Positions 1,370 through 26,127 of a stretch of DNA of 64,000 bases are shown here, piece after piece (the first letter of the stretch is position 1; the number at the start of each line of letters is the position of its first letter). The notes beneath the pieces were generated by a model. That model was not told where the DNA came from and did not search any database. It saw only the letters and a list, made by a program, of their open reading frames with translations. Source of the DNA: Escherichia coli (GTDB lineage Bacteria; Pseudomonadota; Gammaproteobacteria; Enterobacterales; Enterobacteriaceae); assembly GCF_048403405.1 (NCBI RefSeq), contig NZ_CP183129.1; one strand, written 5' to 3'. A program made the position numbers and the translations under genes.

Positions 1370-1403
1370 GTTCTCCCTTGCCTTATCCAAGGTCAGAAAC
1401 ACA

Positions 1404-1436: not shown

Positions 1437-1525
1437 ACTTTTATTCACTTAGGTTTTGCCAGTTCTCAGGATTTCGTGTTATCCGTCCGCATTAGCCAAC
1501 GTCATTTTTCAACAAAATATTCTGC

Positions 1526-2059
1526 TTATTTGTCAATTCCCCAGCACGCCAGCGCGCTCTCCTGGTCACGCCGTGAGACCTGTCCATAGCAGTTATTTGA
1601 ACGAATACGGCAGTCTCTGCCACCGTCCTTAATCCACCAGCGAATCGCCTCACATGCTCCCCTGCGATCGCCAGCATTAATTCGTCTGTAAAACGTCGAC
1701 GGGAAACACTTACCGGGACCAATGTTGTACGGACAGAATGACGCGATCCCCGCTTTCTGGGGTTCGGTCAATGGCACTTTGATGTTTTTCTCCACCCATG
1801 CCAGCGCCTTATCACGCTCAATGGCGTTAACCCGGTCGCATTTTTCCTTCGACAACTTCATGCCCGGAACGACAGGTTTGCCATCCACCAGGATGGCACC
1901 GCGGCAGATGGTCCAGATACCCGCGCCATCACGGTATGCCGTGGTGTGGTTACCTTCCTTTTCATCCAGAAACTGGTCGAGAATGTCAGGCGCAGGCGCA
2001 CCAGCGGCAATCAGCGCCAGAACGGCAGCCGACAGGCCGTATCTGATTTTTGCGTTCAT
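1526..2059 (-). CDS. SAR-type phage endolysin (T4-lysozyme-like, GH24)
   Basis: N-terminal weakly hydrophobic Ala/Gly-rich signal-anchor-release segment (LSAAVLALIAAGAPAP) then E-x8-D-x5-T catalytic motif (EGNHTTAYRDGAGIWT); paired with a pinholin upstream. Confidence 0.85.
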   Translation of the reverse strand: MNAKIRYGLSAAVLALIAAGAPAPDILDQFLDEKEGNHTTAYRDGAGIWTICRGAILVDGKPVVPGMKLSKEKCDRVNAIERDKALAWVEKNIKVPLTEPQKAGIASFCPYNIGPGKCFPSTFYRRINAGDRRGACEAIRWWIKDGGRDCRIRSNNCYGQVSRRDQESALACWGIDK

Positions 2060-2164
2060 GGATATTTATCAGGATTTATCGGTTTCTGAGCCCTGGATAT
2101 GTTTATCAGTTCCAGCCTGTTGCCTCAGGCTGCTAACAGGTCAATACAATCATGAGGATTATTT

Positions 2165-2437
2165 ATGGACAATAACACCATTTCTCTACAGGAGTTGCTC
2201 GACAGCATTTCCAGGCTTCGGGAAGACGTGAATACCCTTACCGTCGCCTTCTCATATCTGGCATTCTCAATTCCAAGGGAACAGATGCAATCAACGCTGG
2301 CATCAATCCAGTTTGAATCATGCAATCCCAAATGGTCTCAGGAACAACAAGACTCTTTCAGGCGGCTTGCTGTATTACTGGATGAAAAATATGCTGGTAA
2401 AATTACCATTTCGGCGGACTCTTCAGAGAACCCGTAA
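2165..2437 (+). CDS. hypothetical 90-aa protein encoded antisense to the late operon
   Basis: ATG at 2165 with GAGGA Shine-Dalgarno 6 nt upstream; no TM or signal peptide; 3' end overlaps the convergent 114-aa gene by 35 bp. Confidence 0.45.
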   Translation: MDNNTISLQELLDSISRLREDVNTLTVAFSYLAFSIPREQMQSTLASIQFESCNPKWSQEQQDSFRRLAVLLDEKYAGKITISADSSENP

Positions 2438-2747
2438 TTATTCCCGGTAGTTTTCCTCTGTAGGTTATCAACACATCCTGCGCCTCTAAAATTACGGGGC
2501 GCTTTTCCGGCGACTGCTCATCCCCTTCACATAACCCGGCAGCAACATCCAGGAAGACCTGTCTGATGCTCCTTCTGGCTGCTGCCTCATAAAACTCCAG
2601 CGCGGCACCTTCAACACGGTCCAGCGAGATGTCCAGGTCAAAAATTTCACCGTCAAAGCGTTTTTTGTCCCGTAACGCTAAAGTTACCGTAACTTTATTC
2701 TCAAAATTGCGGATCCCTTTCACAATCAGTTTATAGTTTTGAGTCAT
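2403..2747 (-). CDS. hypothetical 114-aa protein between holin and endolysin
   Basis: ATG 4 nt after the holin stop with GGAGAG Shine-Dalgarno; no recognisable domain. Confidence 0.55.
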   Translation of the reverse strand: MTQNYKLIVKGIRNFENKVTVTLALRDKKRFDGEIFDLDISLDRVEGAALEFYEAAARRSIRQVFLDVAAGLCEGDEQSPEKRPVILEAQDVLITYRGKLPGIITGSLKSPPKW

Positions 2748-2751
2748 TGAA

Positions 2752-2967
2752 TTACTCTCCCCGTGCAGCCTTACGACGGTCCTCTCTGATTTTGAAATAC
2801 AGGTTAGTCAGATATGTCAGCAGCCCAAACAGCAGACTCCCCAGCACGCCTATTGCCGCCCACTGAGACGGGGAAACCCTGTCCAGCAACTGCAGGAACC
2901 AGTAGCCCGTTCCCACCGCTGACGTGGTGTATGACACACCTGTTGTGATTTTTTCCATCTGGTACAT
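2752..2967 (-). CDS. class II pinholin (phage 21 S21-like), dual-start motif
   Basis: [10 protein letters not shown]... two closely spaced Met starts; two TM segments; C-terminus ...[22 protein letters not shown] matches S21 as recalled. Confidence 0.8.
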
Positions 2968-3117
2968 ACCCCGTCTCCCGTTATCCGGAAGCTGACAACA
3001 ATAAAAAAAGCCACCAGTTAAGTACTGATGGCTCTGATAACTCATGCAGGCATCTCAGACGACCCACTGACACTACCGGTGAGTTTAACGATACCTTCCA
3101 TTTGGCTGGCTCACTTT

Positions 3118-4971
3118 TTATGATGATGCCGGTGCATTTATCTCCAGCACCAGACTTTCTATCTCAACGCCATACGCTGCATTTTTGGTAATATCCGTCA
3201 GCGTCAGCGCATTCAGCCCCAGTGTCAGACTGTCTTTTATGACCTGGAATGCCGGGCCAGCCACTCCATTCAGTTTCGGAGTAACCGTGGCACTGCCGGC
3301 GGTGAACACCAGCTCCAGCGTCTGCCAGTCGTTACTGTAATTCCCGAACTCGCCCAACTTTGTGTTTCCTGCTTTCTTGTGATGCATCAGATTCAGTTTG
3401 CCGTCTGTGGTCTGGGTGAAGAACGACATCAGGAACGGGTTACCAGTCCCGGTCATCGCCACGACGTCAGGTAACGCTACATCGGTATACAGATAAATTC
3501 CCAGACCGAACTGATTGTTGGTCAGTGCGCCTGACAGTCGAAACTTACAGCTCAGTCTGCCACCCCGTGTCAGCAGGGAGACTGCGTCATCCACCGGGCG
3601 CGTCAGGGACCAGGCTTTATTGCTCTGCTTGGTGATCTTAAATACACCATCTGACAACTGAATTCCGCCATTCTTAATGCTCCAGCCCTGCGCAGCAGCG
3701 TCTCCGGCTGTCGGCAACAGGGAGATTGTGCGTATGGATGCATCTTCAGACGGCCCCGATGGCGTGTCGCCGCCGGGCGAGAGTTTGATTTCCGGTGCCT
3801 TACCACTAATGAAGGCTAAGGTGCGACCGGCTACGTTCAGAATAGCAGTTGCCATACGATCGGGAATAATGCCACGACGCGCCCATGAGCTGAAATGCGT
3901 CGGGCGATTTGATGATACCCAGTTTTTGTTCGTTCGGGATGCCGAACCGTAATAACCAGACCCGACAATATCAGGATCTTCTGACGGGTTGTTTGTCGGT
4001 GTATTAACTCCGCTACCATCGGTCATAAAGGGAACAAAATAAATCTGCTGGGATTCTTTACCTTTATATGCACCATATACCACTTCATATTGCGTACCGT
4101 GTTCTTGTTTCCACGCGTATGTCGTGTCGCCACAAATCCAGGGGACTGATGCCGGACTTCCACCGTGACACTGCGCTGCCAGCCCGGCAAGGTCAGCACG
4201 GAACTGCTGTACCATTGCAAGAAATGCTGCTGGCTGCTGGGCGTAACTGGCATTCGTCATATCGAATTCCCCCTGCATCCAGCATATCGCCAGCAAAACG
4301 TTTTTCGGGTTTTTCTGCAATGCTGCCTTCGTGCGGAAAAGCAGATCCTGATATAACGGCTTACCCACTCCCCAGCGAGCCGAATCCTGACTGGCTCCCG
4401 TGGACTCGCTGAATGTCCCCTCCGTGCCCTGGGTGAATGCCGAACCACCACGACAGCATGGTACCAGCAGGATCCCCGCATTATTAGGGATATACGGAAG
4501 CAGTTTTTTGGCAATATGTAAGCCCTGTCCGACACAGCCGTACTGCCCTTTGCTCAGGTCAGCCCGGGGATGGTTAATCGTACTCATATCCTGAACATCA
4601 TGCAGACAATGGTCAGCAGGAATGATGTCGTTAAATACGCATACTTCACCACCGGGAGTCACTGTGTTACGACGGGCCAGTTGCTTAATGCGCGGATGGG
4701 GCGCATCGTATGAATCCGGAAGCGGAAGCCCTTCACCGTAAGCCATGGCATTGGATTGCCCGGCCAGTACGATGACGTAGTACCACTCCGGCTCAGTTGC
4801 ACCACTGACGACCACATCACCTTCTGCTGCAATCGCCTGCATCAGGGTATAAGGGGTTATGGCCACCGGACTACCAAACGGCTGCCAGCCCTCCTTCAGT
4901 TTTTGTGTCAGTCGTTTCGCAAGGTCTGACGGCGATGCCGCCCTGACCACGTCATAGTGTTTAAATGCCAT
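3118..4971 (-). CDS. nanS: prophage sialate O-acetylesterase (NanS-p-like, SGNH hydrolase)
   Basis: 617-aa protein with GQSN motif (VLAGQSNAMAYG) near N-terminus and long C-terminal beta-rich region; sits between the tRNA cluster and holin as in Stx phages. Confidence 0.75.
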   Translation of the reverse strand: MAFKHYDVVRAASPSDLAKRLTQKLKEGWQPFGSPVAITPYTLMQAIAAEGDVVVSGATEPEWYYVIVLAGQSNAMAYGEGLPLPDSYDAPHPRIKQLARRNTVTPGGEVCVFNDIIPADHCLHDVQDMSTINHPRADLSKGQYGCVGQGLHIAKKLLPYIPNNAGILLVPCCRGGSAFTQGTEGTFSESTGASQDSARWGVGKPLYQDLLFRTKAALQKNPKNVLLAICWMQGEFDMTNASYAQQPAAFLAMVQQFRADLAGLAAQCHGGSPASVPWICGDTTYAWKQEHGTQYEVVYGAYKGKESQQIYFVPFMTDGSGVNTPTNNPSEDPDIVGSGYYGSASRTNKNWVSSNRPTHFSSWARRGIIPDRMATAILNVAGRTLAFISGKAPEIKLSPGGDTPSGPSEDASIRTISLLPTAGDAAAQGWSIKNGGIQLSDGVFKITKQSNKAWSLTRPVDDAVSLLTRGGRLSCKFRLSGALTNNQFGLGIYLYTDVALPDVVAMTGTGNPFLMSFFTQTTDGKLNLMHHKKAGNTKLGEFGNYSNDWQTLELVFTAGSATVTPKLNGVAGPAFQVIKDSLTLGLNALTLTDITKNAAYGVEIESLVLEINAPASS

Positions 4972-5164
4972 GAATCCTCCCGGGCGGGATAATGTTGTGA
5001 GTCAGATAAGGAGCAGGCTGAAGTCCGGAAGTTACAGGACAATGGCAGAAGGGAGACTACAGCCCGCAATTCGAAAAAGACCGCGCAGTTGCGCAGAGTG
5101 ATTACTATGGGGTATTATTCGCCAGCTGAAATATTACTTCACGTTTTATTGTTTATTCCTTGCC

Positions 5165-5193
5165 GCCCGCGTCTCCCAGCGCGGGCTTTTTTT
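5165..5193 (+). terminator. intrinsic terminator oriented for the plus strand
   Basis: gcccgcg / cgcgggc 7-bp stem, 8-nt loop, then ttttttt. Confidence 0.6.
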
Positions 5194-5202
5194 GTCCATA
5201 AG

Positions 5203-5436
5203 AAAGCCCCTCCGGAGAGGGGCTAAAGCCGCGTATCTGTATCATCATGCACATGGTGCCGGGTGCCTCCCGGTGAGTTCAGCCCGGTGCCACTAAACCC
5301 GCGTCATTCTCGTTTTGATAATCAGAGATTATACCGTCACCAGTCGCCCCTCCGCTCAGGGGGATTCACCATGCGAAATTTTTTTAACAAATGCCCAGTC
5401 TGACAGGCAACTGTCAACTTACTGAATTGTGAGCAA
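5203..5436 (-). repeat. copy 1 of a tandem ~220-bp structured element (candidate sRNA unit)
   Basis: Direct repeat of 5690..5904 (roughly three-quarters identity by eye); shares the hairpins agcccctc-cgga-gaggggct and ggtgccgggtgcctcccggtga; on the minus strand the unit ends in hairpin plus T-tract. Confidence 0.6.
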
Positions 5437-5689
5437 CATAGCATTTAACGGGGAACCTGTTTTCTGCAGTAAAAAGGCCCACCGGAGCGGATGGGCCTGG
5501 AAGGATAGCGGTCATGTGATGCCGGTTTCCCGGTAACTCAGCACCGGTATCTGAGTCAACGTTTTCTCTACTGGGTCATTTCCGATACGCCCTGCCTGCT
5601 GACAGGCTTTCATCACATCTGAAAATATAGCACCCTGACTGATACTGTAGTACCTAAGGTTCCAGAAACTGTGATGTATCCGGCACAGA

Positions 5690-5904
5690 AAAGCCCCTCC
5701 GGAGAGGGGCTGGAGAGTGGCGCTATGTGCCATTGCATGGTGCCGGGTGCCTCCCGGTGAATTCAGTACCAGCACCTGAATCCGCGATTATCCCATATAC
5801 CTACTCGCTGATTGCCCCTCCGCACAGGGGGATTCACCATGCCAGTTTCTTTTAACAAACTCCCCGCAAACCAGACAACAGTCAACCGCCTGAATTGTGA
5901 GACA
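5690..5904 (-). repeat. copy 2 of the tandem structured element
   Basis: Same hairpin set and shared segments (gggggattcaccatgc, tgaattgtgag) as copy 1. Confidence 0.6.
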
Positions 5905-5945
5905 TTTAAAAAAAAGCCCGCAAAAGCGAGCCAGGGAAAATAAGT

Positions 5946-6022
5946 GTGGCGCGTTGTACTGGATTCGAACCAGTGACCGATTGCTTAGAAGGCAATTGCT
6001 CTGTCCGGCTGAGCTAACAACG
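5946..6022 (-). tRNA. argO: tRNA-Arg (anticodon UCU), phage argO-like
   Basis: Reverse complement folds as canonical cloverleaf: acceptor GCGTTGT/ACAACGC, anticodon loop CTTCTAA, T-loop TTCGAAT, 3' CCA. Confidence 0.85.
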
Positions 6023-6035
6023 CAGGATACAGATA

Positions 6036-6113
6036 ATGGACCGCCTTCGGGGACCCGAACTCCGCGCAACCAGCTTCGAAGGCTGGCGCTCTTTCCTGAT
6101 GAGCTAATGGCGG
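6036..6113 (-). tRNA. argN: tRNA-Arg-like (anticodon UCG inferred), phage argN-like, possibly degenerate
   Basis: Cloverleaf with anticodon stem CCAGC/GCTGG and loop CTTCGAA, but one acceptor mismatch, one T-stem mismatch and atypical T-loop TTCGGGT. Confidence 0.6.
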
Positions 6114-6120
6114 TATGTGA

Positions 6121-6196
6121 TGGTGGCCCTTGCTGGATTTGAACCAGCGACCTGGCGATTATGAGTCGCTCGCTCTCACCACTGAGCTAAAGGGCC
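6121..6196 (-). tRNA. ileZ: tRNA-Ile2-like (anticodon CAU), phage ileZ-like
   Basis: Reverse complement GGCCCTTTAGCTCAGTGGTGAGAGCG...CTCATAA...TTCAAATCCAGCAAGGGCCACCA closely resembles E. coli ileX as recalled. Confidence 0.85.
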
Positions 6197-6245
6197 GGAA
6201 GCAGAATAATAATGGTGCGTAATTAATTCTGCAATCTCATCCGTT

Positions 6246-6572
6246 TCAAACGATTAAATCCTGAACTTCCCTGACTGTCTGCTCAAAACGTCCGGTCTCC
6301 AGTTCAACGCCAATCGCACGACGCCCGAGCGCCAGTGCCGCTTTTACCGTTGAACCTGAGCCCATAAAAAAATCTGCAACCAGGTCTCCCGGACGACTGC
6401 TTGCGCTGATTATCTGCTGCAGCATTTCTGCCGGTTTTTCGCACGGATGTTTCCCGGGATAGAACTGCACCGGTTTATGCGTCCAGACATCGGTATACGG
6501 CACCTGCGCTGTCACGCCAAAATACCGCCGCAGTCGGCATTCACAACCACAAGCGTGTTTAACGTACTGCAC
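6246..6572 (-). pseudogene. 5'-truncated DNA methyltransferase remnant (C-terminal half only)
   Basis: Carries HPCEKP and FMGSGST motifs but no upstream DPPY-type catalytic motif; in-frame stop 2 codons upstream of the GTG; only ~110 bp to the next gene. Confidence 0.6.
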
Positions 6573-6585
6573 AGCTTTTCAGACA

Positions 6586-6612
6586 TAAAAAGGCCGCCTG
6601 ATAGCAGCCTTT
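6586..6612 (-). terminator. intrinsic terminator downstream of the PP2C gene
   Basis: On minus strand aggctgc-tatcag-gcggcct stem (one G-U pair) followed by ttttt. Confidence 0.5.
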
Positions 6613-6682
6613 TCACATTAAAATTAAGTTTTTCTTTACTCTGTAGTATGGGAAATTAGCATTCCCTACTGGGTTTATACAA

Positions 6683-7426
6683 CTAATCTGACGTCACACG
6701 CACCATTATACTTACTAAAGAAAAGTCATCATCAGGTCCGGCTCTCTCTATACGACGCAAAATACCATTAGAAAACTTCTGACTATTACTCATAGTATTT
6801 GATGTAAATCTGGGGCGTTTTTCCCAAACGTTATGAACTCCATCAGACATGATACACAGATGATACAACCCGTTAATACCAGGCAAATCTTTCCACGGGA
6901 TAAAATCACAGTCGTATTCCATATCAACATTTGAGGCTATGGCAGTCGTTAAGATATTTTTTCCCGGTTTATTCTTCAAATCTCTGGGTTTAAAAATATT
7001 CTGATCAATTAACATCTGATGTCTGGTATCGTCCTTCGTCAATTGATATGCTTTCTTTTCTCCAATGCAATACAAGCGACAATCACCAATATGACCAATA
7101 ATAATTCCGCTATCACAAACATAACAAAAGGTAAGTGTAGTAGCAGCTTTATCGAACTCATCATTAACTTCAGCTAACGACATAACTTTTCGCTTAACTT
7201 CAGCAAATACATTCGGAACTGCATCAAAAGATAAACTTGTCAATGCTGAAAGTTCAGCGATTGCCATGGATGAAGCATAACTGGCACCAGAGTATGAACC
7301 TACACCATCAGCTACGGCAAATAAGATGCCGTCTCCTACAATTTTTGGAGGAAGCAATGAATCTTCGTTGACCCTACCTGGTTCTTTTGGATACGAGAAT
7401 GATGAAGTCGCTATCAGCTGAATCAT
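6683..7426 (-). CDS. PP2C-family (PPM) Ser/Thr protein phosphatase
   Basis: Motifs NEDS, FAVADGVGS, GHIGDCR, MSDGV in PP2C order; ATG with AAGGAG Shine-Dalgarno; 103 bp downstream of the kinase gene. Confidence 0.8.
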   Translation of the reverse strand: MIQLIATSSFSYPKEPGRVNEDSLLPPKIVGDGILFAVADGVGSYSGASYASSMAIAELSALTSLSFDAVPNVFAEVKRKVMSLAEVNDEFDKAATTLTFCYVCDSGIIIGHIGDCRLYCIGEKKAYQLTKDDTRHQMLIDQNIFKPRDLKNKPGKNILTTAIASNVDMEYDCDFIPWKDLPGINGLYHLCIMSDGVHNVWEKRPRFTSNTMSNSQKFSNGILRRIERAGPDDDFSLVSIMVRVTSD

Positions 7427-7529
7427 GACTCACTCCTTAAAAAAGAATGCGCAAAATCAAACGCCACATCATCTATTGTCTGATATCTATCATCTTTATC
7501 CATCCTTGTGCACTTAGCTATGATAGGCT

Positions 7530-8186
7530 TTATTTTTTATCATCTAAATTTAAGTCTTCAATTAACCGTCCCACAGCATAAACATCAGTCTTAACTGAAT
7601 ACTCTGCATTATATAAAATCTCGGGAGCCATATATCTTGTACTTCCCATACGGGTACCGATCTCGGTCAATTTAGTGGTATCCCCTTCGGGATTCGTATC
7701 TTTTACCAGACCAAAATCAGACACCTTGTATGTTCCGTCGCTAAATCGCAAAACATTAAAGGGTTTTATATCTCTGTGTAAATAGCCTTTGGCATGGATG
7801 TAAGCTACACCATCTAATACCATTTTCACTATTGAAATTTTTTGATCTGTTGTAAGAAGGTTGTTCGTTATTTCGTGCTCAAGATCACATTCTGCTTTAT
7901 CCATAATGAACCATGGATTCTCAACAAACAAATCGCACAAATAAATAGGAACAATATTGCTATGTACGCAATGTGATTGATACACAACCTCCCTTTTAAA
8001 ACGCCTTCTAAACTGCTCTATTTGCGCCAAAAGCTCTGGTTTTTCGGGTGCTAAAACCTTTCTAGCATAATCCCCGCATTCACCTTTATTGAGGTTGTAA
8101 ACCTTAACGTGTTCAACAAAGCCAAATGCCCCTCTTCCAATCAACTGAATTCGTTTTATAAAGTAATTACCGTGCTGTTCTTCCAT
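7530..8186 (-). CDS. Hanks-type (eukaryotic-like) Ser/Thr protein kinase
   Basis: Gly-rich loop GRGAFGFV, catalytic loop HRDIKPFN, DFG (VSDFGLV) and APE (YMAPEIL) motifs; start taken at internal ATG 8186 because the ORF's TTG start lies inside the upstream terminator hairpin. Confidence 0.8.
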   Translation of the reverse strand: MEEQHGNYFIKRIQLIGRGAFGFVEHVKVYNLNKGECGDYARKVLAPEKPELLAQIEQFRRRFKREVVYQSHCVHSNIVPIYLCDLFVENPWFIMDKAECDLEHEITNNLLTTDQKISIVKMVLDGVAYIHAKGYLHRDIKPFNVLRFSDGTYKVSDFGLVKDTNPEGDTTKLTEIGTRMGSTRYMAPEILYNAEYSVKTDVYAVGRLIEDLNLDDKK

Positions 8187-8258
8187 TAAGCTCACCGACC
8201 TAAATTGTAACAATATCCATATATTACAACTACAGATAAAAAGGTCCACAGAGTTAAG

Positions 8259-8287
8259 CAAAAAACCCGCACATTTGAGCGGGTTTA
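8259..8287 (-). terminator. intrinsic terminator immediately after the Q-like gene (tR'-like)
   Basis: Minus strand aaacccgc-tcaaatgt-gcgggtttttt. Confidence 0.6.
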
Positions 8288-8332
8288 TACACTTTACAGC
8301 AATATATCACATTTACATAAAATATATGCTAT

Positions 8333-9028
8333 CTAATTGACTTTTGCAATATCTCGCTGCAAAAATGCCGCTTTTTGTTGAGATCTCCTTTTCACAGTGC
8401 AAATCAGAGATTCGGTATCGAGGTTCATAAAAATGTCGAGTATTTCACGCCAGTAGCTCACATAATTGTGGCTCCAGTTGTCAGGCTTAATCCCACACAG
8501 ACGGGCAAGCTCCTGTTGCTGGTAGATATCATGTCCTATAACCCATCTCCTGACATCCTGTGCAGCCAGCCAGATTAATTTTTTCAGGCGTTCCTGTGTC
8601 TTCCCTGCAATTTTCCTGGTACCAGAGTGAGTCTTAAATTCTGTCCATGCCCACTGCGTTATCGCGATCTGATACTCCCAGCAAGTATTTCCGCTGTAAC
8701 ACCACAACAACCAGGCTTTATGATGTTCTTCAAGAGACAAAACAGCCCGCCGCCATGATGATGTAGAAAAAGCAACCTGACTGACCAGAGGAATTGACGT
8801 CCCCTTCGCCAGCGATTGTTTTCCCGGGATTGGTGGATTATCCCGCGTTATCATTTTTCCGGTCACTTCATCGCGGTACCGGATTTTTTTACGCCTGTAA
8901 CGCCCTGTATCGAACATGGCATTCTCCTGCCAGGCTTCAAGCTGACCTTTTGTTGCCCCACTCAAATCAGCGGTGGCGATAATGAGCTGCTCACGCACAA
9001 ACTGTAAATACTGGTTATTCATGCGCAC
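8333..9028 (-). CDS. putative late-gene antiterminator (Q-like)
   Basis: 231-aa protein directly downstream of rusA and upstream of terminator, tRNAs and lysis genes; assignment by position, not by a recognised motif. Confidence 0.45.
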   Translation of the reverse strand: MRMNNQYLQFVREQLIIATADLSGATKGQLEAWQENAMFDTGRYRRKKIRYRDEVTGKMITRDNPPIPGKQSLAKGTSIPLVSQVAFSTSSWRRAVLSLEEHHKAWLLWCYSGNTCWEYQIAITQWAWTEFKTHSGTRKIAGKTQERLKKLIWLAAQDVRRWVIGHDIYQQQELARLCGIKPDNWSHNYVSYWREILDIFMNLDTESLICTVKRRSQQKAAFLQRDIAKVN

Positions 9029-9378
9029 TCCAGTTCTGTGATTTTTATCCCCAGCCGCCCACCAGGAACGAGCTGACCGCGCACAATATTGATTTCATCA
9101 AACTGCTCGTCGTCTATAAGTAGTCCGGCATGCGTCAGCGCATCCAGTGGTGCCTTCAGGATATTGTCCAGGTCGCGGCGGCGCTTATCCGGTGGCTCTG
9201 CAATCACCTTTATCGCCAGCCTTCCGGACAGGCTTAATTTCAGCCGCTGCTGGCGAACAATAAGCGCCACAGCCCGGCGATAACGCTTTCCCTCCTCCGA
9301 GATAAAATATGTGCTGCCACGGCGTCGCCAGTAAGTGTTCACCGTCGGCGGGTAAGGTAAAACCAAATCTATGAGCAT
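9019..9378 (-). CDS. rusA: RusA Holliday-junction resolvase
   Basis: 119 aa; conserved PDKRRRDLDN and GGRLGIKITE segments match RusA as recalled. Confidence 0.85.
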   Translation of the reverse strand: MLIDLVLPYPPTVNTYWRRRGSTYFISEEGKRYRRAVALIVRQQRLKLSLSGRLAIKVIAEPPDKRRRDLDNILKAPLDALTHAGLLIDDEQFDEINIVRGQLVPGGRLGIKITELECA

Positions 9379-9390
9379 CAGTCACCTCTT

Positions 9391-10437
9391 TTACCCAAGC
9401 ACGCCAGTTGCAAAGGCGTGATCAAGAAAACGAAAAATTAAATCAACCTGAGAACCATGCTTTTCTTCGAACGCCAGAGGATCCGCATGAAGCTCGTTGT
9501 GATGCTCCCGACACAGCGGTAGCGTGAAAATATCGTGAGATTTTGTCCCCATTCCGCCCTGACCATGACCAATCAGGTGATGGGGATCGTCGGCTGGCTT
9601 ACCACAACACGCACACGGCTGTGTCTTCACCCAGCGTGTGTATTTCTCGTTAACCCAGCGGCGACGTTTAGGTCGTTTCATGAAAGATTCCGGAGACTCA
9701 GGATCAACGGCAATGCTGACCACCGTCTCTTCCTGTGGCGGGTTTTGCTGGTGGGCGTGAGGCAGCGGCGCAAGATTTTTTGTGCGCTGCTTCAGTATGC
9801 TGGTGGCGGTCTGCTCTCCCGGTACGATGTCGCTTTCACGGTACATTGAGCGGATTTTTTCCGCACGCAACCCCAGCGAACGACGTAATACCGCTTCCGG
9901 TAGCGCGTCCGCCACCTGATTGCGGACCGCCCACCAGGATAATTCAGCCAGCGATAATTCCCGTTCCTGCGAGCCATTCATTGCATGGCGTATGACGTCA
10001 ATCATCCATGCAGACAGGTTTTGGTGAGCAAGTTGCCCGAGTGATTCGGAGGTCTGGTCGCGCAGCTGGTTGTCGCAGTGCCAGCACAACACCATTGCGC
10101 CGGTACCATAACGGTGAATGACGGTTTCACTGTGGTGATAATCGCCGTGTGGCCACTGGCAGGATTTAACATGGCGCAGTAACCAATCAGACAATGCGCC
10201 AGCGCCACCAGCAGCACGAATCACTCGTTCGTCGCTGAAAAATGGCAGTAATGATTTATCCTCCGCCAGCGGCTGGCGAACGGCAGGAACGACCCCGGAC
10301 GGCAGATTACGCATGCTTTTCGGTTCCGGCTCCACCAGTACCCGGGTATTGTGGAATACCGGCATGGATTCACGGCCCGGCTTAACGATCACCAGCCCGA
10401 GTTCCGGTACCAGAACAGGTCGAAGTAATACCCGCAC
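9391..10437 (-). CDS. YdfU-like prophage protein (DUF968 type) with C-terminal Cys/His-rich motif
   Basis: 348 aa; CACCG...HHLIGHGQGGMGTKSHD...CREHHNELH cluster; position equivalent to ydfU in Qin. Confidence 0.6.
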   Translation of the reverse strand: MRVLLRPVLVPELGLVIVKPGRESMPVFHNTRVLVEPEPKSMRNLPSGVVPAVRQPLAEDKSLLPFFSDERVIRAAGGAGALSDWLLRHVKSCQWPHGDYHHSETVIHRYGTGAMVLCWHCDNQLRDQTSESLGQLAHQNLSAWMIDVIRHAMNGSQERELSLAELSWWAVRNQVADALPEAVLRRSLGLRAEKIRSMYRESDIVPGEQTATSILKQRTKNLAPLPHAHQQNPPQEETVVSIAVDPESPESFMKRPKRRRWVNEKYTRWVKTQPCACCGKPADDPHHLIGHGQGGMGTKSHDIFTLPLCREHHNELHADPLAFEEKHGSQVDLIFRFLDHAFATGVLG

Positions 10438-10438
10438 G

Positions 10439-10723
10439 TTACCTCCAGATGCGTTGCTGGAATGTGCGGGACGGACGCGGTGGGCGTTCGGAATAAGGGA
10501 GTCTGACGTAGATTATCCAGTGACGATAATCGAGGGTGAGGGCTTTCCTAAACTCATATCCACGTCTGCGGTAGTTATGAATCAGCCATTCGGCCTGTTC
10601 TTCAGTACAGGGATCGTGCTGATACCAGTCATATTTGAATGCGTGAGAACGCCACCCGTGCCTGCTGGCAAAGGCAGAATCAGAATTGCGAAATTTGAAA
10701 TTATGCGCCATTGTCATCTCCAA
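10439..10723 (-). CDS. hypothetical nin-region protein (94 aa)
   Basis: ORF abutting the ydfU-like gene (2-nt gap); Trp/Tyr/His-rich; no recognised family. Confidence 0.4.
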   Translation of the reverse strand: MEMTMAHNFKFRNSDSAFASRHGWRSHAFKYDWYQHDPCTEEQAEWLIHNYRRRGYEFRKALTLDYRHWIIYVRLPYSERPPRPSRTFQQRIWR

Positions 10724-10770
10724 TGGCGCTGCAGGTTGCCAGTTGTTCAGGCTGGCTCACGTATTATAAC

Positions 10771-10992
10771 TTATTCCCGAACTACCTTGAAACCGAGTCT
10801 TTCCAAGTATTCAATGAATGCCTCAACAGATAACACTACATGATCATCAGGAATTAACGCTGTGTAGGTAATACCCCCATTCTCAACGCGCACAGCATAG
10901 AGGCCATCTTCACTAAAAATTTCACGTAATTCTTCGATTTTCATCAACAGAATCCTTCCAGATAAATAGCACTCCCCCTGTTCGGGGTCCAT
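10771..10992 (-). CDS. hypothetical small protein (57-73 aa, start ambiguous)
   Basis: Two candidate ATGs (10992, 10944), each with a purine-rich Shine-Dalgarno. Confidence 0.4.
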   Translation of the reverse strand: MDPEQGECYLSGRILLMKIEELREIFSEDGLYAVRVENGGITYTALIPDDHVVLSVEAFIEYLERLGFKVVRE

Positions 10993-11077
10993 CCCTCTTC
11001 TCCCTGCGCGCTACTTAAGTATTTTTGATTCTATTCTGGCACCGTCCAAAACTTCAAACACGTTGAAAATAAAAACA

Positions 11078-11100
11078 AAAAACCCGCCGAAGCGGGTATA
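11078..11100 (-). terminator. strong intrinsic terminator ending the two-gene cassette
   Basis: Minus strand acccgc-ttcg-gcgggt then ttttttgtttttatttt; same hairpin core as 12921..12938. Confidence 0.7.
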
Positions 11101-11101
11101 C

Positions 11102-12208
11102 TCAAACAATCTGGAAAATATTTCTTGGATTTGTAATAGGTCTGTTGATGGAGAACAACTCACGAATTAAATCTTGGCTCAAGCCAGTTTTCATAAGAAT
11201 TCTTAGCCAGGTTGCATCATCCAGCATTTCAATCGCCTCGGCCAGCATGCCGGGTTCTTCAGGGCGCAAAAGTTCATCACCAGGTTCAACTCTCGTATAC
11301 CCTCTGGAATTAAGATGCATATAGCCAGTTCTTGCCTGTTCCTGGGTCAATAAGCCTAATGCGCTGGCTCGATAAATACACATTTTAAGGCTGATTTTCC
11401 ATCTAAGTTTAAATTCAACCAGAGCATTCCAGTCGAATTGCTTACCTCGTATTCGTGGAAATTCTTTAATGAAAGATAACCTGGGAACTAATAAGGCGCT
11501 CGAAAAGTGATCGGCTTGTGATTCCGTAAGTTTATCACCTGTCGTTATGCCCTCATGCATTACTAAATGCCCTAATTCATGACCTAAATCAGAGCGAAAT
11601 CTACATATGCTTTTTTTAACATTGTTCCTGATGATAACAGGCCTGTTATTGTGAACAGTAAAAGCATCAACACGATCATCGACTCCCGTAACATGCGCAA
11701 CGATTACCCCTAAACTCTCCGCCAATTTAACCATTGATGATATAGGGCCAAGACCTAAATTCCAGGCACGGCGACAATCTTCTGCCACTCGCTCAATATC
11801 ATTCGGAGTAAGTAATTCAGCCCCTGGGTGCTCCGGTATGTTAACGTCAGGAAATTCGATTTCACCTTCAACAGCAGAAATTATAATATTAAGAATCTCA
11901 GCCCTGGCCAATACACTATTAGTCAGCGTTTGAGTCCTGGACTTCTTACTCCGAAAATGGCAGACATCACTTTCCAGAGCGTATTTTCGTTCAGTAAAAA
12001 GAAAACTGGACTTAATCATAAGCGCTGAAGATATTAACTCAAGACATTGCTCCGATGGCCTGCACCCCTTCTCCAGTTTGCTAACGAATTGCTTTGTCTT
12101 GCCAATTTTTTCGGCTAACTCTTCACAAGAAAGCCCAACAGCCATTCTCGCTAGTTTGAGCTTATCACCCCGATACTCAGTGAAGTTATTCACCTGATGT
12201 TCCATCAC
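11102..12208 (-). CDS. HTH (XRE-family) + ImmA/IrrE-type M78 zinc metallopeptidase fusion protein
   Basis: N-terminal helix-turn-helix (LKLARMAVGLSCEELAEKIGKTKQFVSKLEKG); C-terminal HExxH (HELGHLVMHE); start overlaps the upstream gene by 23 bp. Confidence 0.8.
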   Translation of the reverse strand: MMEHQVNNFTEYRGDKLKLARMAVGLSCEELAEKIGKTKQFVSKLEKGCRPSEQCLELISSALMIKSSFLFTERKYALESDVCHFRSKKSRTQTLTNSVLARAEILNIIISAVEGEIEFPDVNIPEHPGAELLTPNDIERVAEDCRRAWNLGLGPISSMVKLAESLGVIVAHVTGVDDRVDAFTVHNNRPVIIRNNVKKSICRFRSDLGHELGHLVMHEGITTGDKLTESQADHFSSALLVPRLSFIKEFPRIRGKQFDWNALVEFKLRWKISLKMCIYRASALGLLTQEQARTGYMHLNSRGYTRVEPGDELLRPEEPGMLAEAIEMLDDATWLRILMKTGLSQDLIRELFSINRPITNPRNIFQIV

Positions 12209-12836
12209 TGCTCACATCCAAATCTTTATCCTTCGTACGCCGACGAAGAGGCACCTTATTAATCTCCGCTTCGTCAGGGAGTGTGTTATAATCAAGAGGC
12301 ATAAGCGGCATCGATGCTGTAGATTGATGAGAAACTATACTAATCTGAGCACCATAAGTATTAAATCCAACAAGAGCTACCTCCCAACGAGGCAGTGTGG
12401 ACTCTAATTCACCATCGCCCTCTTCGGATAAAAAAGGCTCAGCTATGACTCGCCATGTAATATCTTGCTCAGCCTCAACATCACCAAACAATGAGAGCTG
12501 CTCATACTCTACTTTATTTCGACGCAGACGATGTTTCTTTTTGGGGTTATTAATGCAATCTTTGGTAAATTGTAGCGGAACTTTATTTAAAGCAACTACA
12601 TAGTCCAACCCCTTGGAAATCATCTCAAGGCCAGGAATTGCATCTTCATTTTGAATAAGATGATTTCTGACCCAATCATAAGCCCTTACACCTTCAGACC
12701 AGTTGCTGTCTAATGCGTGCTTATGATAGTACAGCTGCTCAAGTACGTTAGCGATCTCCGCCAACAAGTGGCGAACATAGTTTTCAGCAAGATAAGGTTG
12801 AAATTCCCAACAAGGAGCTAACTGATTTTCATTCAT
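12186..12836 (-). CDS. hypothetical 216-aa protein with no recognisable domain, first gene of the cassette
   Basis: ATG at 12836; basic patch NPKKKHRLRRNK, acidic C-terminus; translationally coupled to the HTH-peptidase gene. Confidence 0.6.
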   Translation of the reverse strand: MNENQLAPCWEFQPYLAENYVRHLLAEIANVLEQLYYHKHALDSNWSEGVRAYDWVRNHLIQNEDAIPGLEMISKGLDYVVALNKVPLQFTKDCINNPKKKHRLRRNKVEYEQLSLFGDVEAEQDITWRVIAEPFLSEEGDGELESTLPRWEVALVGFNTYGAQISIVSHQSTASMPLMPLDYNTLPDEAEINKVPLRRRTKDKDLDVSSDGTSGE

Positions 12837-13001: not shown

Positions 13002-13157
13002 TTACTCCTCAGGTTCGTAAGCTGTGAAGACAGCGACCTCCGTCTGGCCGGTTCGGATTCGTACCTCGCAGAGGTCTTTCCTCGTTACCAGTGCCGTCAC
13101 AATGACGGTTAAACAGATGACGATCAGGGCGATTAACATCGCCTTTTGCTGCTTCAT
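13002..13157 (-). CDS. hokD: Hok/Gef-family type I toxin (HokD/RelF-like), with overlapping mok-like leader ORF to 13214
   Basis: MKQQKAMLIALIVICLTVIVTALVTRKDLCEVRIRTGQTEVAVFTAYEPEE matches HokD as recalled. Confidence 0.85.
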   Translation of the reverse strand: MKQQKAMLIALIVICLTVIVTALVTRKDLCEVRIRTGQTEVAVFTAYEPEE

Positions 13158-13394
13158 AGCCTGCTTCCCCTTGCCTTTCGGCACGTAAGAGGCTAACCTA
13201 CATTTGTGAGACATAGATTGGGCCTCAGATTAATGTTAAGCGTCTTGCAGGACGCGAAATGTTAACTGGGGCTTTTCTCTATCTGCCTTTCAGTGTTCAT
13301 GCCTGAGACAGATAGCCTCAAGCACCCGCAGCCATTCTACTTAACTCACGTCACCTCGCCAATATGAAATCAATCAGAAAGGTGATCCATAAAA

Positions 13395-14081
13395 TCACTC
13401 CTTCTCTTCTTTTCCGTAGTGGAGTTGGCCAATTTTGATAAGAGGGCGTCCCTGAGATTTGCGGTGTAGATTGGTATCGCGCAGAGAATACACACAGCCA
13501 CAATATTCCTGCTGATAGAATTTTTCGCGCTTGCTGATTTCAATCATACGGGACGAGCCGCCCTGCTTGCGCCAGTTATAATCCCAGTACACCATACCCG
13601 GATAATGCGCAACAGCTCGCCGCCCACACTCGTTAACCTGCTGCATATTTTTCCAGCGTGAAATGCCCAGTGAACTGCTGATCACACTGAAACCATTTTC
13701 AGCAGCGTACAACGCTGTCCGCTCAAAACGCATGTCAAAACACATGGTACAACGGATCCCCCTCTCAGGCTCCCATTCCATTCCTTTGGCACGTTCAAAC
13801 CAGTTGTCGGTGTCGTAATCAGCATCGATAAACGGCACGCCGTGTTGTTCAGCAAAGCGAATATTTTCATCCTTACGAATTAAATACTCTTTCTGAGGAT
13901 GAATGTTCGGGTTGTAGAAAAAGATGGTGTAGTCGATTCCCGAGGCCTGAAGCGCCTCCATCACTTCACCGGAACATGGAGCACAGCAAGAGTGCAGTAG
14001 TAGTTTGTTTGCCCCGTTTGGGAGCTCCAATTTAGGCCGTTTGAAATCAGCAATAGTCATAAATATTTTTATTGGGGTCAT
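13395..14081 (-). CDS. QueH-like (DUF208) epoxyqueuosine reductase homologue
   Basis: HSCCAPCS motif plus additional conserved Cys; 228 aa from ATG 14081; the ORF-track start at 14123 is a TTG inside the IS150 inverted repeat and is rejected. Confidence 0.7.
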
Positions 14082-14135
14082 GAAAATAGCACAGAGTGTA
14101 GCATCAGAGTGTACTGACCCCAAAAAGTTGGACAG

Positions 14136-14987
14136 TTAAACACGAGGCATATAGGTCTGATTCCGATATTCAATTGGAGTCAGACCTTTTAATTTCAGGC
14201 TAATTCTTCTGCTGTTGTAGTATTCAATATATTCCGTAACAGCATCCTTCAGTTCGCTTATATTACTGAACTCATCAAGATAAAAACACTCCGACTTTAA
14301 GGTTCCAAAGAAACACTCCACCACAGCATTATCCAGACAATTGCCTTTTCTGGACATGCTTTGTTTAATACCATGTTCTTTAAGGATATTTTGATATCTT
14401 CTCATACGATACTGCCATCCCTGGTCAGAGTGCAGAACAGGATGCTCGTGAGGATTAAGCTTTTTGAATGCCTGATCGAGCATATTCTCAACCATGTTCA
14501 TCACTGGTCTTTCCGAAAGGCTGTAAGAAATAACTTCGTTGTTGAAGAGATCTATTACTGGAGACAAATACAGCTTGCGCCCATTGACTGCAAATTCAGT
14601 AACATCGGTAACCCACTTCTCGTTTGGCCGCGTAGCCTTGAAATCTCTTTGGAGAACATTAGGGGCGGTTTGCCCTACCTCTCCTCTGTAAGAGCGGTAT
14701 CGCTTGACCTTAATCGCTGCTTTAAGTGAGAGGGTTCCCATCAGGCGCTGAACAGCTTTATGGTTAATCTGTTTCCCTTCTCGATGAAGAGACAGCGTTA
14801 CCCTACGGTATCCGTATCGGCCTCTATTCTCGTGATAAATCTCACTAATACGCTTTTTAACGTCCGCATACTTGTCAGGCTTGCTGAGAGCCTTTAGATG
14901 ATAATAAAACGTACTGCGCGGTATCTCCGCAGCCCTGAGAAGCTCATCAAGAGGATAAAACTGCCTTAGCTCGTTGAGTACTTTCAC
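14136..14987 (-). CDS. insK: IS150 transposase OrfB (integrase/DDE domain)
   Basis: 283 aa; matches InsK as recalled; overlaps OrfA in the -1 frame. Confidence 0.9.
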
Positions 14988-15505
14988 TTTTTCGTGGGAT
15001 GAGCTAAGGCTTTCAGCTTTTTTAGATACATAAGCCGCGTTTCAAGAAATCGAACTTGCCTTTCAAGATCCTCAATGCGTCGGTCTTTTGACAGCTCCAA
15101 TGCTGATGCCGCTTTTTCTGGATCAACTGATATTGCAATGTTTCTTTTGGTGCCAATCTTGAGCGCGCGTAAACCAGCTTCTCCGCGCTCTTCATAGACC
15201 TTCAGCCACCTGGCTACAGAACCACTACCAGCAAGCATAAAGTGAGCAGCAGCCTGATTAAGGGACATGTGCTGCTCGATCACAGCTTTCACGACCTTAA
15301 TACGCAACTCTGGATCAGCACTAACGCCTTTAGGTTTGGGAATTAAACCTTTTTCTCCATGTTTTTCATAGAGGGCAACCCATGTCCTGACCTGGGTTCG
15401 GGGGACACCAAAACGTGCCGAGATGATCCTGTAACCATCATCAGTTGTGAAGTAGTGATTCACGACTTCAAGGCGCTTTTCAAAAGGGTATTTTGGCTTT
15501 GACAT
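14984..15505 (-). CDS. insJ: IS150 transposase OrfA (HTH)
   Basis: 173 aa; MSKPKYPFEKRLEVVNHYF... matches InsJ as recalled. Confidence 0.9.
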   Translation of the reverse strand: MSKPKYPFEKRLEVVNHYFTTDDGYRIISARFGVPRTQVRTWVALYEKHGEKGLIPKPKGVSADPELRIKVVKAVIEQHMSLNQAAAHFMLAGSGSVARWLKVYEERGEAGLRALKIGTKRNIAISVDPEKAASALELSKDRRIEDLERQVRFLETRLMYLKKLKALAHPTKK

Positions 15506-15680
15506 ATTAGGGGCTATTCCATTTCATCGTCCAACAAAATGGGTGCAGTACAGAGCAGGGCTATCGGGAATATATGTCTAAATCTGGTAATATCTGGTTT
15601 TGACGCAAAGCGGACAACCACGCTGGCTCTACCCTGCGCCATGAAAATGTCAATTCACATCTGAACTAATGCTCTTTAAT

Positions 15681-16121
15681 CTAGTAACGTCTAAAATACC
15701 TAACATTTCCTTGATAAAATGCCAGTACACGCTGCATAGCTTCGCTCTTCCGGCACTCGCGACAGATTATATTCAGGCGCCTGTCGTAGCGGCGTATTTC
15801 GCCGTCTGGTAACGACCAGATAAGGTCCGGATCAACCACTGCAGGTTTCTTCACCTTTGCCCTTGAGAGTTTTTTGCGAGCATTTTGCCAGTCCTTACGC
15901 GCCTGTTCAGACGGGAATAACCCGTAACCAGAGTTGTATACATCGCCACTGGCAACCAGCTCTCTGGCGAGAACACTCATCAGATATCTTGTCGCACCTG
16001 TCTTGGCTTCCAGTTGCCGCAACGTCTCGCGACCGCTCAGACGTACAAGTTCAACAACCTGCCCTTTAATTTTTTCCCGCTCTTCTTGTGTAAATACTTT
16101 TGCCATAAGCGCCTCCGGCAA
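15681..16121 (-). CDS. hypothetical prophage protein (146 aa)
   Basis: ORF abutting the 262-aa gene; Cys pair ICRECRK; no confident family. Confidence 0.45.
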   Translation of the reverse strand: MPEALMAKVFTQEEREKIKGQVVELVRLSGRETLRQLEAKTGATRYLMSVLARELVASGDVYNSGYGLFPSEQARKDWQNARKKLSRAKVKKPAVVDPDLIWSLPDGEIRRYDRRLNIICRECRKSEAMQRVLAFYQGNVRYFRRY

Positions 16122-21529: not shown

Positions 21530-21587
21530 TTTCTGGTGACATTTGGCGGTATCAGTTTTACTCCGTGACTGCTCTGCCGCCCTTTTT
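21530..21587 (+). ncRNA. dicF: DicF small RNA
   Basis: tttctggtgacatttggcggtatcagttttactccgtgactgctctgccgcccttttt is near-identical to K-12 DicF as recalled, including terminator hairpin. Confidence 0.85.
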
Positions 21588-24770: not shown

Positions 24771-25019
24771 ATGGCAAGACTTATTCTGCTCACTGAGTGG
24801 GCAAAAGAGGAATTCAGTGAACCGGTCCCTACTCCGAGTACGTTAAGTAAATACGCTAAAGCCGGAATGATATTTCCTCTCCCCAAAAAAGTTGGAAGAC
24901 GCTGGCGAGTGGATCCGCAAGCTCGCTTTGTCGGAATGGTAAACAAGCCGGAGGTGATCGCCACAGATCACCCTGCTTTGAAGAGGATACTGGAAGATGG
25001 CGCGCCCGCGAAAATATAA
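24771..25019 (+). CDS. excisionase (Xis/AlpA-like)
   Basis: 82 aa; MIFPLPKKVGRRWRVDPQARF resembles lambda Xis; 3' end overlaps int start. Confidence 0.7.
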   Translation: MARLILLTEWAKEEFSEPVPTPSTLSKYAKAGMIFPLPKKVGRRWRVDPQARFVGMVNKPEVIATDHPALKRILEDGAPAKI

Positions 25020-26127
25020 AACCGATGTTCCGGGATTATCTCCGTATTTTGACAAAAGAAATAACAAAGTTTACTGGCGTTACAGGCATCCCATAACAGG
25101 CAAAAATCACGGTCTCGGCAGTATTGACCAGAAACTGGCAGAAACTATTGCAGCAGAAGCGAACAGCCGTCTTGCCCGGCAGCAAATGGAACAAATGCTC
25201 AGTCTGCAGGAGAAAATTATTAGTGATACCGGCGGTTCATCAACCGTTACCATTTTTCTGAATAATTACAGAAAAATTCAACAGGAAAGATATGAAAACG
25301 GCGAGATCAAACTCAACACGCTGAAACAGAAAGCGGCCCCTCTCAGGGTATTTGATGAACGTTTTGGCACCAGACCGTTAGATGCCATAACCGTAAAAGA
25401 TGTGGTATCAGTACTGGAAGAGTACAAGGCCAGAGGACATAACAGAATGGGACAAATTTTCAGGAAAGTACTGATCGATGTTTTCCGGGAAGCTCAGCAA
25501 ACGGGCGATGTCCCGCCAGGCTTTAACCCTGCAGAATCGGCAAAAAAACCGCAGGTGCGGATATCAAGACAGCGACTGACTTTTGATGAGTGGATGATGA
25601 TTTATAACGCAGCGGAAAAGAATGGTTACTTTTTACAGCGCGGTATGCTGCTGGCACTGATGACAGGCCAGCGCCTTTCAGATATTTGCAAAATGCAATT
25701 TTCGGATATCCGGGATGGTTATCTTCATGTCGAACAGCAAAAAACAGGAACCCGGATTGCCATCCCTCTGGCTCTGCGTTGCGATAAATTAAATCTCACC
25801 CTGGATGATGTAGTGTCATCCTGCCGCGATTGCGTTCTTAGTCCGTGGCTATTGCACCACCATCACGCGAAAGGGACAGCTAAGCGCGGCGGGATGGTTA
25901 AGCCAGCAACATTAACCGTTGCATTTAAAAAAGCCCGGGATTCTGTGGATTACAACTGGCGTGCTAATGGCACCCCACCCTCTTTCCATGAGCAGAGATC
26001 TTTATCAGAGCGATTGTTCAGAGAGCAGGGGGTTGATACCAAAATTTTGCTAGGCCATTCGAATCAAAAAATGACCGATATTTACAACGATGTACGCGGT
26101 AAGGAGTGGAAAAAACTGGTCATTTGA
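24997..26127 (+). CDS. phage integrase (tyrosine recombinase)
   Basis: 376 aa; C-terminal catalytic region ...LLGHSNQKMTDIYNDVRG; ends 45 bp from the ompW stop. Confidence 0.9.
   Translation: MARPRKYKTDVPGLSPYFDKRNNKVYWRYRHPITGKNHGLGSIDQKLAETIAAEANSRLARQQMEQMLSLQEKIISDTGGSSTVTIFLNNYRKIQQERYENGEIKLNTLKQKAAPLRVFDERFGTRPLDAITVKDVVSVLEEYKARGHNRMGQIFRKVLIDVFREAQQTGDVPPGFNPAESAKKPQVRISRQRLTFDEWMMIYNAAEKNGYFLQRGMLLALMTGQRLSDICKMQFSDIRDGYLHVEQQKTGTRIAIPLALRCDKLNLTLDDVVSSCRDCVLSPWLLHHHHAKGTAKRGGMVKPATLTVAFKKARDSVDYNWRANGTPPSFHEQRSLSERLFREQGVDTKILLGHSNQKMTDIYNDVRGKEWKKLVI

Follow-up and report, generated by a model that had tools for sequence, protein, structure and literature searches.

In Escherichia coli, queuosine (Q) at position 34 of tRNA is normally completed by QueG (YjeS), the reductase that acts on epoxyqueuosine (oQ). 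The QueG reaction depends on cobalamin (PMC4646009, which cites Frey et al. 1988). In some bacteria, QueG is replaced by a non-orthologous enzyme, QueH (PMC5372724), and the QueH of Thermotoga maritima is represented by crystal structures (PDB 7LC5, 7LC7 and 9DEU). Among viruses, a 2019 survey of phage 7-deazaguanine genes found no homologues of QueA, QueG or QueH in the viruses analysed (PMC6884629). Here we describe a queH gene carried by a lambdoid prophage in a 64,000-nucleotide stretch of E. coli DNA (RefSeq assembly GCF_048403405.1, contig NZ_CP183129.1), hereafter called the window. We consider it likely that the gene encodes a genuine QueH, that it is an Enterobacterales housekeeping gene captured as lambdoid cargo, and that its product doubles the chemistry of QueG without the need for vitamin B12, completing Q-tRNA.

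The window protein matches the Pfam family QueH (PF02677, formerly DUF208) over model positions 1–174 of 175, with E = 1.2e-65, and matches the T. maritima QueH crystal-structure sequences (PDB 7LC5) at E = 8e-22 by phmmer. The Pfam match is well above anything that chance would give. A family search that scanned 1.84 billion representatives returned 4774 relatives at E <= 0.001. Conservation was assessed in alignments of full-length representatives, namely a 41-sequence alignment (A1) and a set of 61 representatives at 50% identity; cysteines and other residues are numbered as in the 228-residue form of the window protein. All of the invariant or nearly invariant residues of the family are retained, as follows: C32, C33, P35, C36, N59, Y66, R69, E106, R110, C111, C114, R118, K144, Q191, C194, G195 and C196. 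The seven cysteines among them (C32, C33, C36, C111, C114, C194 and C196) are each present in 80–100% of the 61 representatives. We take these seven residues to be putative ligands of the cluster or iron, as reported for the 7LC5 structure and in view of the C9S and D13N mutant structures of the T. maritima enzyme in the PDB. In 58 of the 61 representatives, the position of T. maritima Asp13 is occupied by a cysteine; on the alignments, CCAPC is the family norm, and the motif of the window QueH is typical rather than aberrant.

The predicted structure points the same way. The AlphaFold (AF2) model of the window QueH, for which the family alignment served as input, has a mean predicted local distance difference test score (pLDDT) of 93.9 and a predicted template modelling score (pTM) of 0.89. 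When the model was searched with Foldseek, the top five PDB entries were all T. maritima QueH, with target-normalised template modelling (TM) scores of 0.90–0.92 and root-mean-square deviations (rmsd) of 1.2–2.0 Å. For 7LC5 itself, a target-normalised TM score of 0.92 goes with an rmsd of 1.2 Å across 179 columns. The fold class ranked next, that of the TtuA/LarE-type ATP-pyrophosphatases, scores many orders of magnitude worse. A PADLOC scan of the protein gave no defence-system matches. An earlier note on this DNA had recognised a protein with the QueH-type HSCCAPCS Fe–S cysteine motif, to be judged by alignment and structure prediction against QueH. That recognition holds: the Pfam match is full-length, the seven cysteines are kept, and both the cysteine spacing and the predicted fold are consistent with QueH. 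Together, sequence and modelled fold strongly support the identification of the window protein as a genuine member of the QueH family.

Two in-frame ATG codons are candidate starts for the minus-strand queH reading frame, which ends with a TGA stop at 13395–13397. They lie at 14081, giving 228 residues, and at 14060, giving 221 residues. The ATG at 14060 is probably the better start because RefSeq WP_000150294.1 begins there on identical DNA, because the chromosomal homologues of Erwinia and Enterobacter begin at the equivalent Met, and because the GF47 allele has ATT in place of the upstream ATG, while the 14060 ATG is invariant. The window open reading frame (ORF) is intact, and its product is the commonest allele.

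Among 5426 complete E. coli genomes, queH is present in 994 (about 18%), of which 984 have at least 80% of the gene; in carriers, it is nearly always a single, chromosomal copy. Every listed E. coli record names the gene ‘epoxyqueuosine reductase QueH’. The exact window protein is found on at least 1000 contigs of the protein collection, where RefSeq calls it ‘MULTISPECIES: epoxyqueuosine reductase QueH [Enterobacteriaceae]’. Given this frequency and the name already in RefSeq, the description of a prophage queH as unexpected in the earlier note was overstated. Its premise that E. coli normally uses QueG is sound, since queG is present in 5425 of the 5426 complete genomes. In carriers, queH would therefore add to QueG another enzyme, not homologous to it, that acts at this step.

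The earlier note also suggested a survey of homologues in prophages. All the sampled E. coli queH loci (those of strain 4/1-1, O157:H7 Z1832, E. coli B, GF47 and FDAARGOS_1249) lie in the same prophage slot. In IMG/VR, a relative is encoded on 185 viral contigs, and the best 80 of the 185 all encode the identical protein; the IMG/VR counts given here refer to these 80 identical-QueH loci. A DUF977 gene lies upstream of queH in 68 of the 80, in 66 cases at a gap of 175 bp. Downstream, hok/sok follows queH in 58, with a fixed gap of 65 nt in 55. The sole deposited phage accepted as a carrier is Escherichia phage HannyBb (PP925841.1), with a 45-kb lambdoid genome in which queH, 95% identical, extends from 7001 to 7687. 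Other phage records with QueH relatives, mostly unannotated metagenomic fragments or very large, were not counted as phages.

Phage annotation has missed this function. In the HannyBb record, the gene appears as ‘hypothetical protein’, and PHROG 3217, which it matches, carries the label ‘unknown function’; in RefSeq bacterial records, the same protein is named QueH. In the searchable literature, we found no paper discussing QueH/DUF208 on a prophage. As far as checked, prophage queH is known to annotation pipelines and undescribed as a phage trait. In contrast to the result of the 2019 survey (PMC6884629), QueH is present in at least one isolated phage and in many prophages.

Where did the gene come from? 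The nearest relatives outside E. coli, all named QueH, are found in Erwinia, Providencia, Proteus, Photorhabdus, Gibbsiella, Ewingella, Enterobacter, Klebsiella and others, and eight aligned relatives are 79–91% identical to the window QueH. Identity follows host taxonomy, being 87–91% for Klebsiella and Enterobacter, 85.5% for Erwinia and 82.7% for Providencia. Where the surrounding DNA was inspected, queH has a chromosomal, non-phage setting. The Erwinia gene lies between purL and a glrK-like kinase gene, the Providencia gene adjoins tmcA, and those of Enterobacter ludwigii and Klebsiella variicola lie among ordinary metabolic and regulatory genes. The identity pattern fits the capture by a phage of an Enterobacteriaceae housekeeping gene. 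Comparison of the prophage alleles (window, E. coli B, GF47 and HannyBb) gives a synonymous divergence (dS) of 0.27–0.46 and a nonsynonymous divergence (dN) of 0.013–0.017. The resulting dN/dS of 0.03–0.06 argues that QueH has been under strong purifying selection while prophage-borne. A reading of queH as a pseudogene, or as a gene in decay, was also considered and was rejected on these values.

E. coli has the full Q pathway, including tgt and queA, and is unable to make B12 de novo. Against this background we propose the following role. A captured housekeeping queH would have entered the cargo region between the replication genes and the gene for the Q antiterminator, a region of lambdoid genomes that also gathers hok/sok, relBE, restriction-modification and defence modules. 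The host enzymes Tgt and QueA would make oQ34, and the prophage QueH would reduce the oQ34 epoxide to the Q34 cyclopentene at position 34 of the host tRNA-Asn, tRNA-Asp, tRNA-His and tRNA-Tyr. By homology, the seven cysteines of QueH would hold a [4Fe-4S] cluster together with an iron next to it. In a lysogen, QueH would thus duplicate the QueG step without B12, and Q-tRNA could be finished even when cobalamin is scarce. The beneficiary may be the lysogen, as a form of lysogenic conversion, or lytic development; queH is co-oriented with the early-right operon. Since QueG needs B12, QueH replaces QueG in some bacteria, and E. coli does not make B12 de novo, B12-independent completion of Q is the most economical reading. 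Reportedly, Zallot et al. in 2017 found no cobalamin with QueH, and few organisms are said to have both enzymes. We infer the enzymatic activity of the prophage QueH, the timing of its expression and the independence from B12 as its selected benefit; that bypassing B12 is beneficial is a conjecture. A more tentative proposal is that temperate lambdoid phages of E. coli retain QueH for releasing the last step of Q-tRNA formation from its need for cobalamin.

Table 1. Features of the queH locus (window coordinates)
Feature	Coordinates	Strand	Description and basis
queH coding sequence	13395..14060	-	221 aa + stop; RefSeq WP_000150294.1, ‘epoxyqueuosine reductase QueH’; ORF list and matches to Pfam PF02677 and PDB 7LC5
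Possible 7-codon N-terminal extension of queH	14061..14081	-	In-frame ATG at 14081; probably untranslated leader
Codons of the putative first metal-binding Cys motif, H-S-C-C-A-P-C-S	13971..13994	-	C32, C33, P35 and C36 invariant in the 41-sequence alignment
Codons of the second Cys pair, C-T-M-C (C111, C114)	13740..13751	-	Invariant in 61/61 representatives; align with T. maritima C87 and C90
Codons of the third Cys pair, C-G-C (C194, C196)	13494..13502	-	Invariant in alignment A1; the aligned T. maritima residues are C169 and C171
hokD toxin gene (51 aa), next gene downstream of queH	13002..13157	-	ORF; named ‘type I toxin-antitoxin system toxin HokD’ by RefSeq where the DNA is identical
hok leader/sok antisense region	13152..13327	-	Rfam RF01794, full model, 120.5 bits against a gathering threshold of 59
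IS150 (1443 bp; insJ 14984-15505, insK 14136-14987)	14110..15552	-	Comparison with the uninterrupted locus; junction sequences
DUF977/Ren-like gene, usual upstream neighbour of queH	15681..16121	-	PHROG 142; RefSeq ‘DUF977 family protein’; 175-bp gap to queH where no insertion sequence intervenes

The window opens within a lambdoid prophage, some 52 kb long, whose integration site is ompW. For the annotation map, we used the RefSeq annotation of the prophage of E. coli FDAARGOS_1249. The first 34 kb of the window are 99.4–100% identical to FDAARGOS_1249, barring the insertion sequence (IS) IS150 in the window and an IS5 in FDAARGOS_1249 only; over the late and cargo region (1–12720), the identity is 99.98%. 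The prophage integrase gene (24997–26127) abuts an intact ompW (26173–26826), and in FDAARGOS_1249, an ompW fragment lies at the far end of the prophage. It follows from the fragment and the intact gene that the phage integrates into ompW, restoring the reading frame. A DicF small RNA (sRNA) gene (21531–21582, plus strand; Rfam, 77 bits) lies upstream of dicB, as in the K-12 prophage Qin.

The layout of the minus-strand early-right unit is as follows. A cro-like gene, YdaT, O/P-like replication genes, DUF1627 and DUF977 are followed by IS150, queH, hokD/sok and a two-gene insert; thereafter come DUF968, RusA, the Q antiterminator, a Ser/Thr kinase with a PP2C phosphatase, tRNAs, an SASA-family esterase and lysis genes. 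The earlier note placed queH on a lambdoid prophage beside hokD, in the position held by relBE in Qin, and this placement proved correct. In K-12 Qin, relE-relB fill the slot between the immunity/replication side and hokD, and in the Qin-like prophage of E. coli B, that slot contains DUF977-queH-hokD-rem. This is a variable cargo slot: besides the exchange of queH for relBE, the neighbours downstream of queH vary among prophages, being hok/sok, a restriction-modification system or a DUF1971 gene. The restriction-modification system is found at the corresponding place in the O157:H7 prophage. In the window, a promoter-like site lies at 13362–13334 (minus strand), 33 nt past the queH stop codon, and a terminator-like site lies near hokD at 12933–12916 (minus strand). 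A Mok-like ORF (13002–13214, minus strand) overlaps hokD.

Further cargo lies downstream. The insert of two genes that parts hokD from the DUF968 gene (11102–12836, minus strand) matches the Rosmer toxin-antitoxin defence system, with an RmrA of 368 aa (helix-turn-helix plus ImmA-like peptidase; E = 6e-105) and an RmrT of 216 aa (E = 5e-25). In the window, the two are intact, while IS5 splits RmrT in the FDAARGOS_1249 prophage; the insert is present in six of the 80 IMG/VR loci. The PP2C-family phosphatase and Ser/Thr kinase genes (6683–8261, minus strand) are flanked by the Q antiterminator gene and by the tRNA cluster, and the kinase resembles the PADLOC kinases PD-T4-6, mad6 and Stk2 (E = 1e-40). 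The three tRNA genes (5947–6196, minus strand) specify Arg-UCU, Arg-UCG and a CAU tRNA (Ile in RefSeq; Ile2/Met), none of which is a Q substrate. Next to them, the sRNA family STnc100 is represented by two full-length copies (5194–5403 and 5681–5871, minus strand; 165 and 136 bits). Between the tRNAs and the holin gene lies a gene for an SASA-family carbohydrate esterase of 617 aa (3118–4971, minus strand), which is NanS-p-like, resembling those of Stx phages; the RefSeq annotation of the matching region lists no stx genes.

The window copy of queH differs from other copies in its upstream DNA. A complete IS150 element, co-oriented with queH, has inserted between the DUF977 gene and queH, 46 nt upstream of the start codon of queH. 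The element has the terminal inverted repeats TGTACTG...CAGTACA and overlapping transposase ORFs of 173 and 283 aa, and it is flanked by a 3-bp target duplication, CTC, at 14107–14109 and 15553–15555; RefSeq names the matching element DNA ‘IS3-like element IS150 family transposase’. Position 14109, the end coordinate in the earlier note, does not mark the boundary of a gene; it is the last base before IS150, an element which that note left unmentioned. The IS150–queH junction was found in none of the 5426 complete E. coli genomes, and IS150 was found at this place in none of the 80 IMG/VR loci.

IS150 cuts queH off from the upstream spacer and the upstream operon. It may be that transcription of the window gene is reduced, or that it now depends on IS150 read-through or on a hybrid promoter. 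The end of IS150 places TTGGGG 17 nt upstream of TGcTACACT, a sequence that resembles an extended −10 element and is conserved in five queH alleles, and the combination could serve as a hybrid promoter for queH.

A second case of an IS150-type end at this place is provided by a divergent class of queH alleles, the GF47 type, which comprises 43 complete genomes, all at least 99% alike. These alleles carry an IS150-like end, solo and some 38 bp long, exactly at the junction matching window 14109/14110, where the sequence ...GGGGCAGTACA is joined to CTCTGATGC. In GF47, the solo repeat lies at about 4657–4700 of the locus, and the DNA further upstream is unrelated. Because the window IS150 and the GF47 solo end meet queH-proximal DNA at one nucleotide, elements of the IS150 group appear to have struck there at least twice. 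The GF47 end may be either the trace of recurrent insertion at one site or the product of an IS-mediated rearrangement. Recurrent hits upstream of queH could be due to a target preference or to selection on queH expression.

Several points weigh against a role for the prophage QueH in completing Q-tRNA. IS150 may have silenced or reduced the window queH, so expression here is uncertain. Consensus scans of the DNA upstream of queH, in the window and in the uninterrupted locus with the 175-bp spacer, gave no convincing sigma-70-like promoter or intrinsic terminator, the counts being at the level of shuffled sequence. NAU accounts for 57% of the Asn, Asp, His and Tyr codons in ORFs of the prophage and for 54% in those of the chromosome, which is not a meaningful difference. 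An NCBIfam scan of the protein gave no family match; it is uninformative, the library apparently having no model that reaches the protein. Lastly, we know of no established physiological difference between oQ-tRNA and Q-tRNA.

One alternative is that queH has no selected function, being a neutral passenger, or that in the window it is a copy silenced by IS150. Lambdoid cargo regions shuffle freely, the host already has queG, the scans detected no promoter belonging to queH, and IS150 parts the gene from its operon and from any promoter more than 46 nt upstream. A passenger would hardly be expected to show dN/dS values of 0.03–0.06 at dS up to 0.46, which indicate long-term purifying selection, or to be retained at 80% or more of its length in 984 of 994 carriers with an intact, commonest-allele ORF in the window. 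Moreover, IS150 is co-oriented with queH, so that read-through and the TTGGGG–TGcTACACT pair may offer a route to expression. We regard a passenger, or a silenced window copy, as unlikely, though the most serious of the alternatives.

A different use of the same chemistry would be in tRNA-level conflict between phage and host, with Q34 altering the sensitivity of tRNAs with GUN anticodons to anticodon nucleases or colicins, or tuning lytic translation. Some toxins target Q-family tRNAs, and the neighbours of queH include conflict genes, namely hok/sok, the Rosmer toxin-antitoxin, and the Ser/Thr kinase with its PP2C phosphatase. However, neither a nuclease nor any partner gene is a constant companion of queH: hok/sok follows it in 58 of 80 loci and other cargo follows elsewhere. 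The prophage tRNAs (Arg, Arg and Ile2/Met) are outside the Q family, and NAU codon usage lends no support to translational tuning. Such a role seems to us very improbable. We give even less credence to the idea that the protein has the QueH fold and acts on a different substrate. Its C-terminal tail, some 25 residues long, is lacking in T. maritima QueH; that tail is common to chromosomal gammaproteobacterial QueH, all invariant family residues are kept, and identity to the housekeeping Enterobacterales enzymes is 83–91%.

The earlier note linked queH to 7-deazaguanine DNA modification as an anti-restriction strategy, a reading for which one may cite the phages that modify their DNA through the preQ0/archaeosine branch (PMC6884629) and the defence and counter-defence cargo of the region (the Rosmer pair with the kinase, and restriction-modification in the O157:H7 prophage), and which we reject as scarcely credible because its partner genes, of which a DpdA-type transglycosylase is required and those for preQ0 synthesis are usual, are not annotated in the prophage: at the level of annotation, neither a DpdA/TGT-like transglycosylase nor any of the preQ0-synthesis genes (folE, queD, queE, queC) is found in the 52-kb FDAARGOS_1249 prophage or in complete HannyBb, QueH works after QueA on a tRNA-bound epoxide, no oQ is known in DNA, the window QueH is 83–91% identical to chromosomal tRNA-pathway enzymes, and the DNA-modifying phages of the 2019 survey had no QueA, QueG or QueH.

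If the phages do keep QueH for the sake of independence from cobalamin, then having Q34 rather than oQ34 would count for the fitness of the lysogen or of the phage when B12 is scarce or its uptake is lost. To our knowledge, the physiological weight of the B12 requirement of QueG, or of oQ as opposed to Q, has never been clear. A prophage-borne, B12-independent bypass in about one-fifth of E. coli genomes, kept by strong purifying selection, would be indirect evidence that finishing Q matters. On that reading, strains such as E. coli B/BL21, and many isolates of O157:H7 or ST131, would also differ from K-12 in tRNA modification in B12-free media. Natural strain pairs for comparison exist, such as E. 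coli B and K-12. For work on tRNA modification in E. coli other than K-12, QueG is not safely assumed to be the sole oQ reductase.

Comparison with described systems places the window gene as follows. Relative to T. maritima QueH, the likeness comprises a full-length match, the three Cys motifs and the predicted fold; the window protein differs in having a Cys in place of Asp13 and in adding a basic C-terminal tail of about 25 residues, common to the gammaproteobacterial relatives. Unlike chromosomal QueH generally, it is encoded by a lambdoid prophage or phage whose host already has QueG in the core genome. With QueG, a cobalamin- and [4Fe-4S]-dependent enzyme, it shares the predicted reaction and the tRNAs, and both genes coexist in carriers; the two proteins are non-homologous, and it is QueG that needs B12 (PMC4646009). 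The phage 7-deazaguanine clusters, in which DpdA is combined with FolE, QueD, QueE, QueC and other proteins (Hutinet et al. 2019), are likewise phage-borne and queuosine-related, but they provide the early preQ0 steps and a DNA transglycosylase, whereas the window prophage provides the last, tRNA-specific step only. The relBE-hokD segment of K-12 Qin has the same map position and orientation, from the replication/immunity side through cargo and hokD to rem or DUF968 and the Q antiterminator; the cargo is queH in the window and relBE in Qin, and the window hokD keeps a full, Rfam-matching sok/leader. Finally, an rRNA methyltransferase described from prophages of Shiga toxin-producing E. coli (PMC10810198) involves another enzyme, another substrate and another level of evidence. 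In both cases, however, a temperate phage carries as cargo an enzyme that would alter RNA modification in its host.

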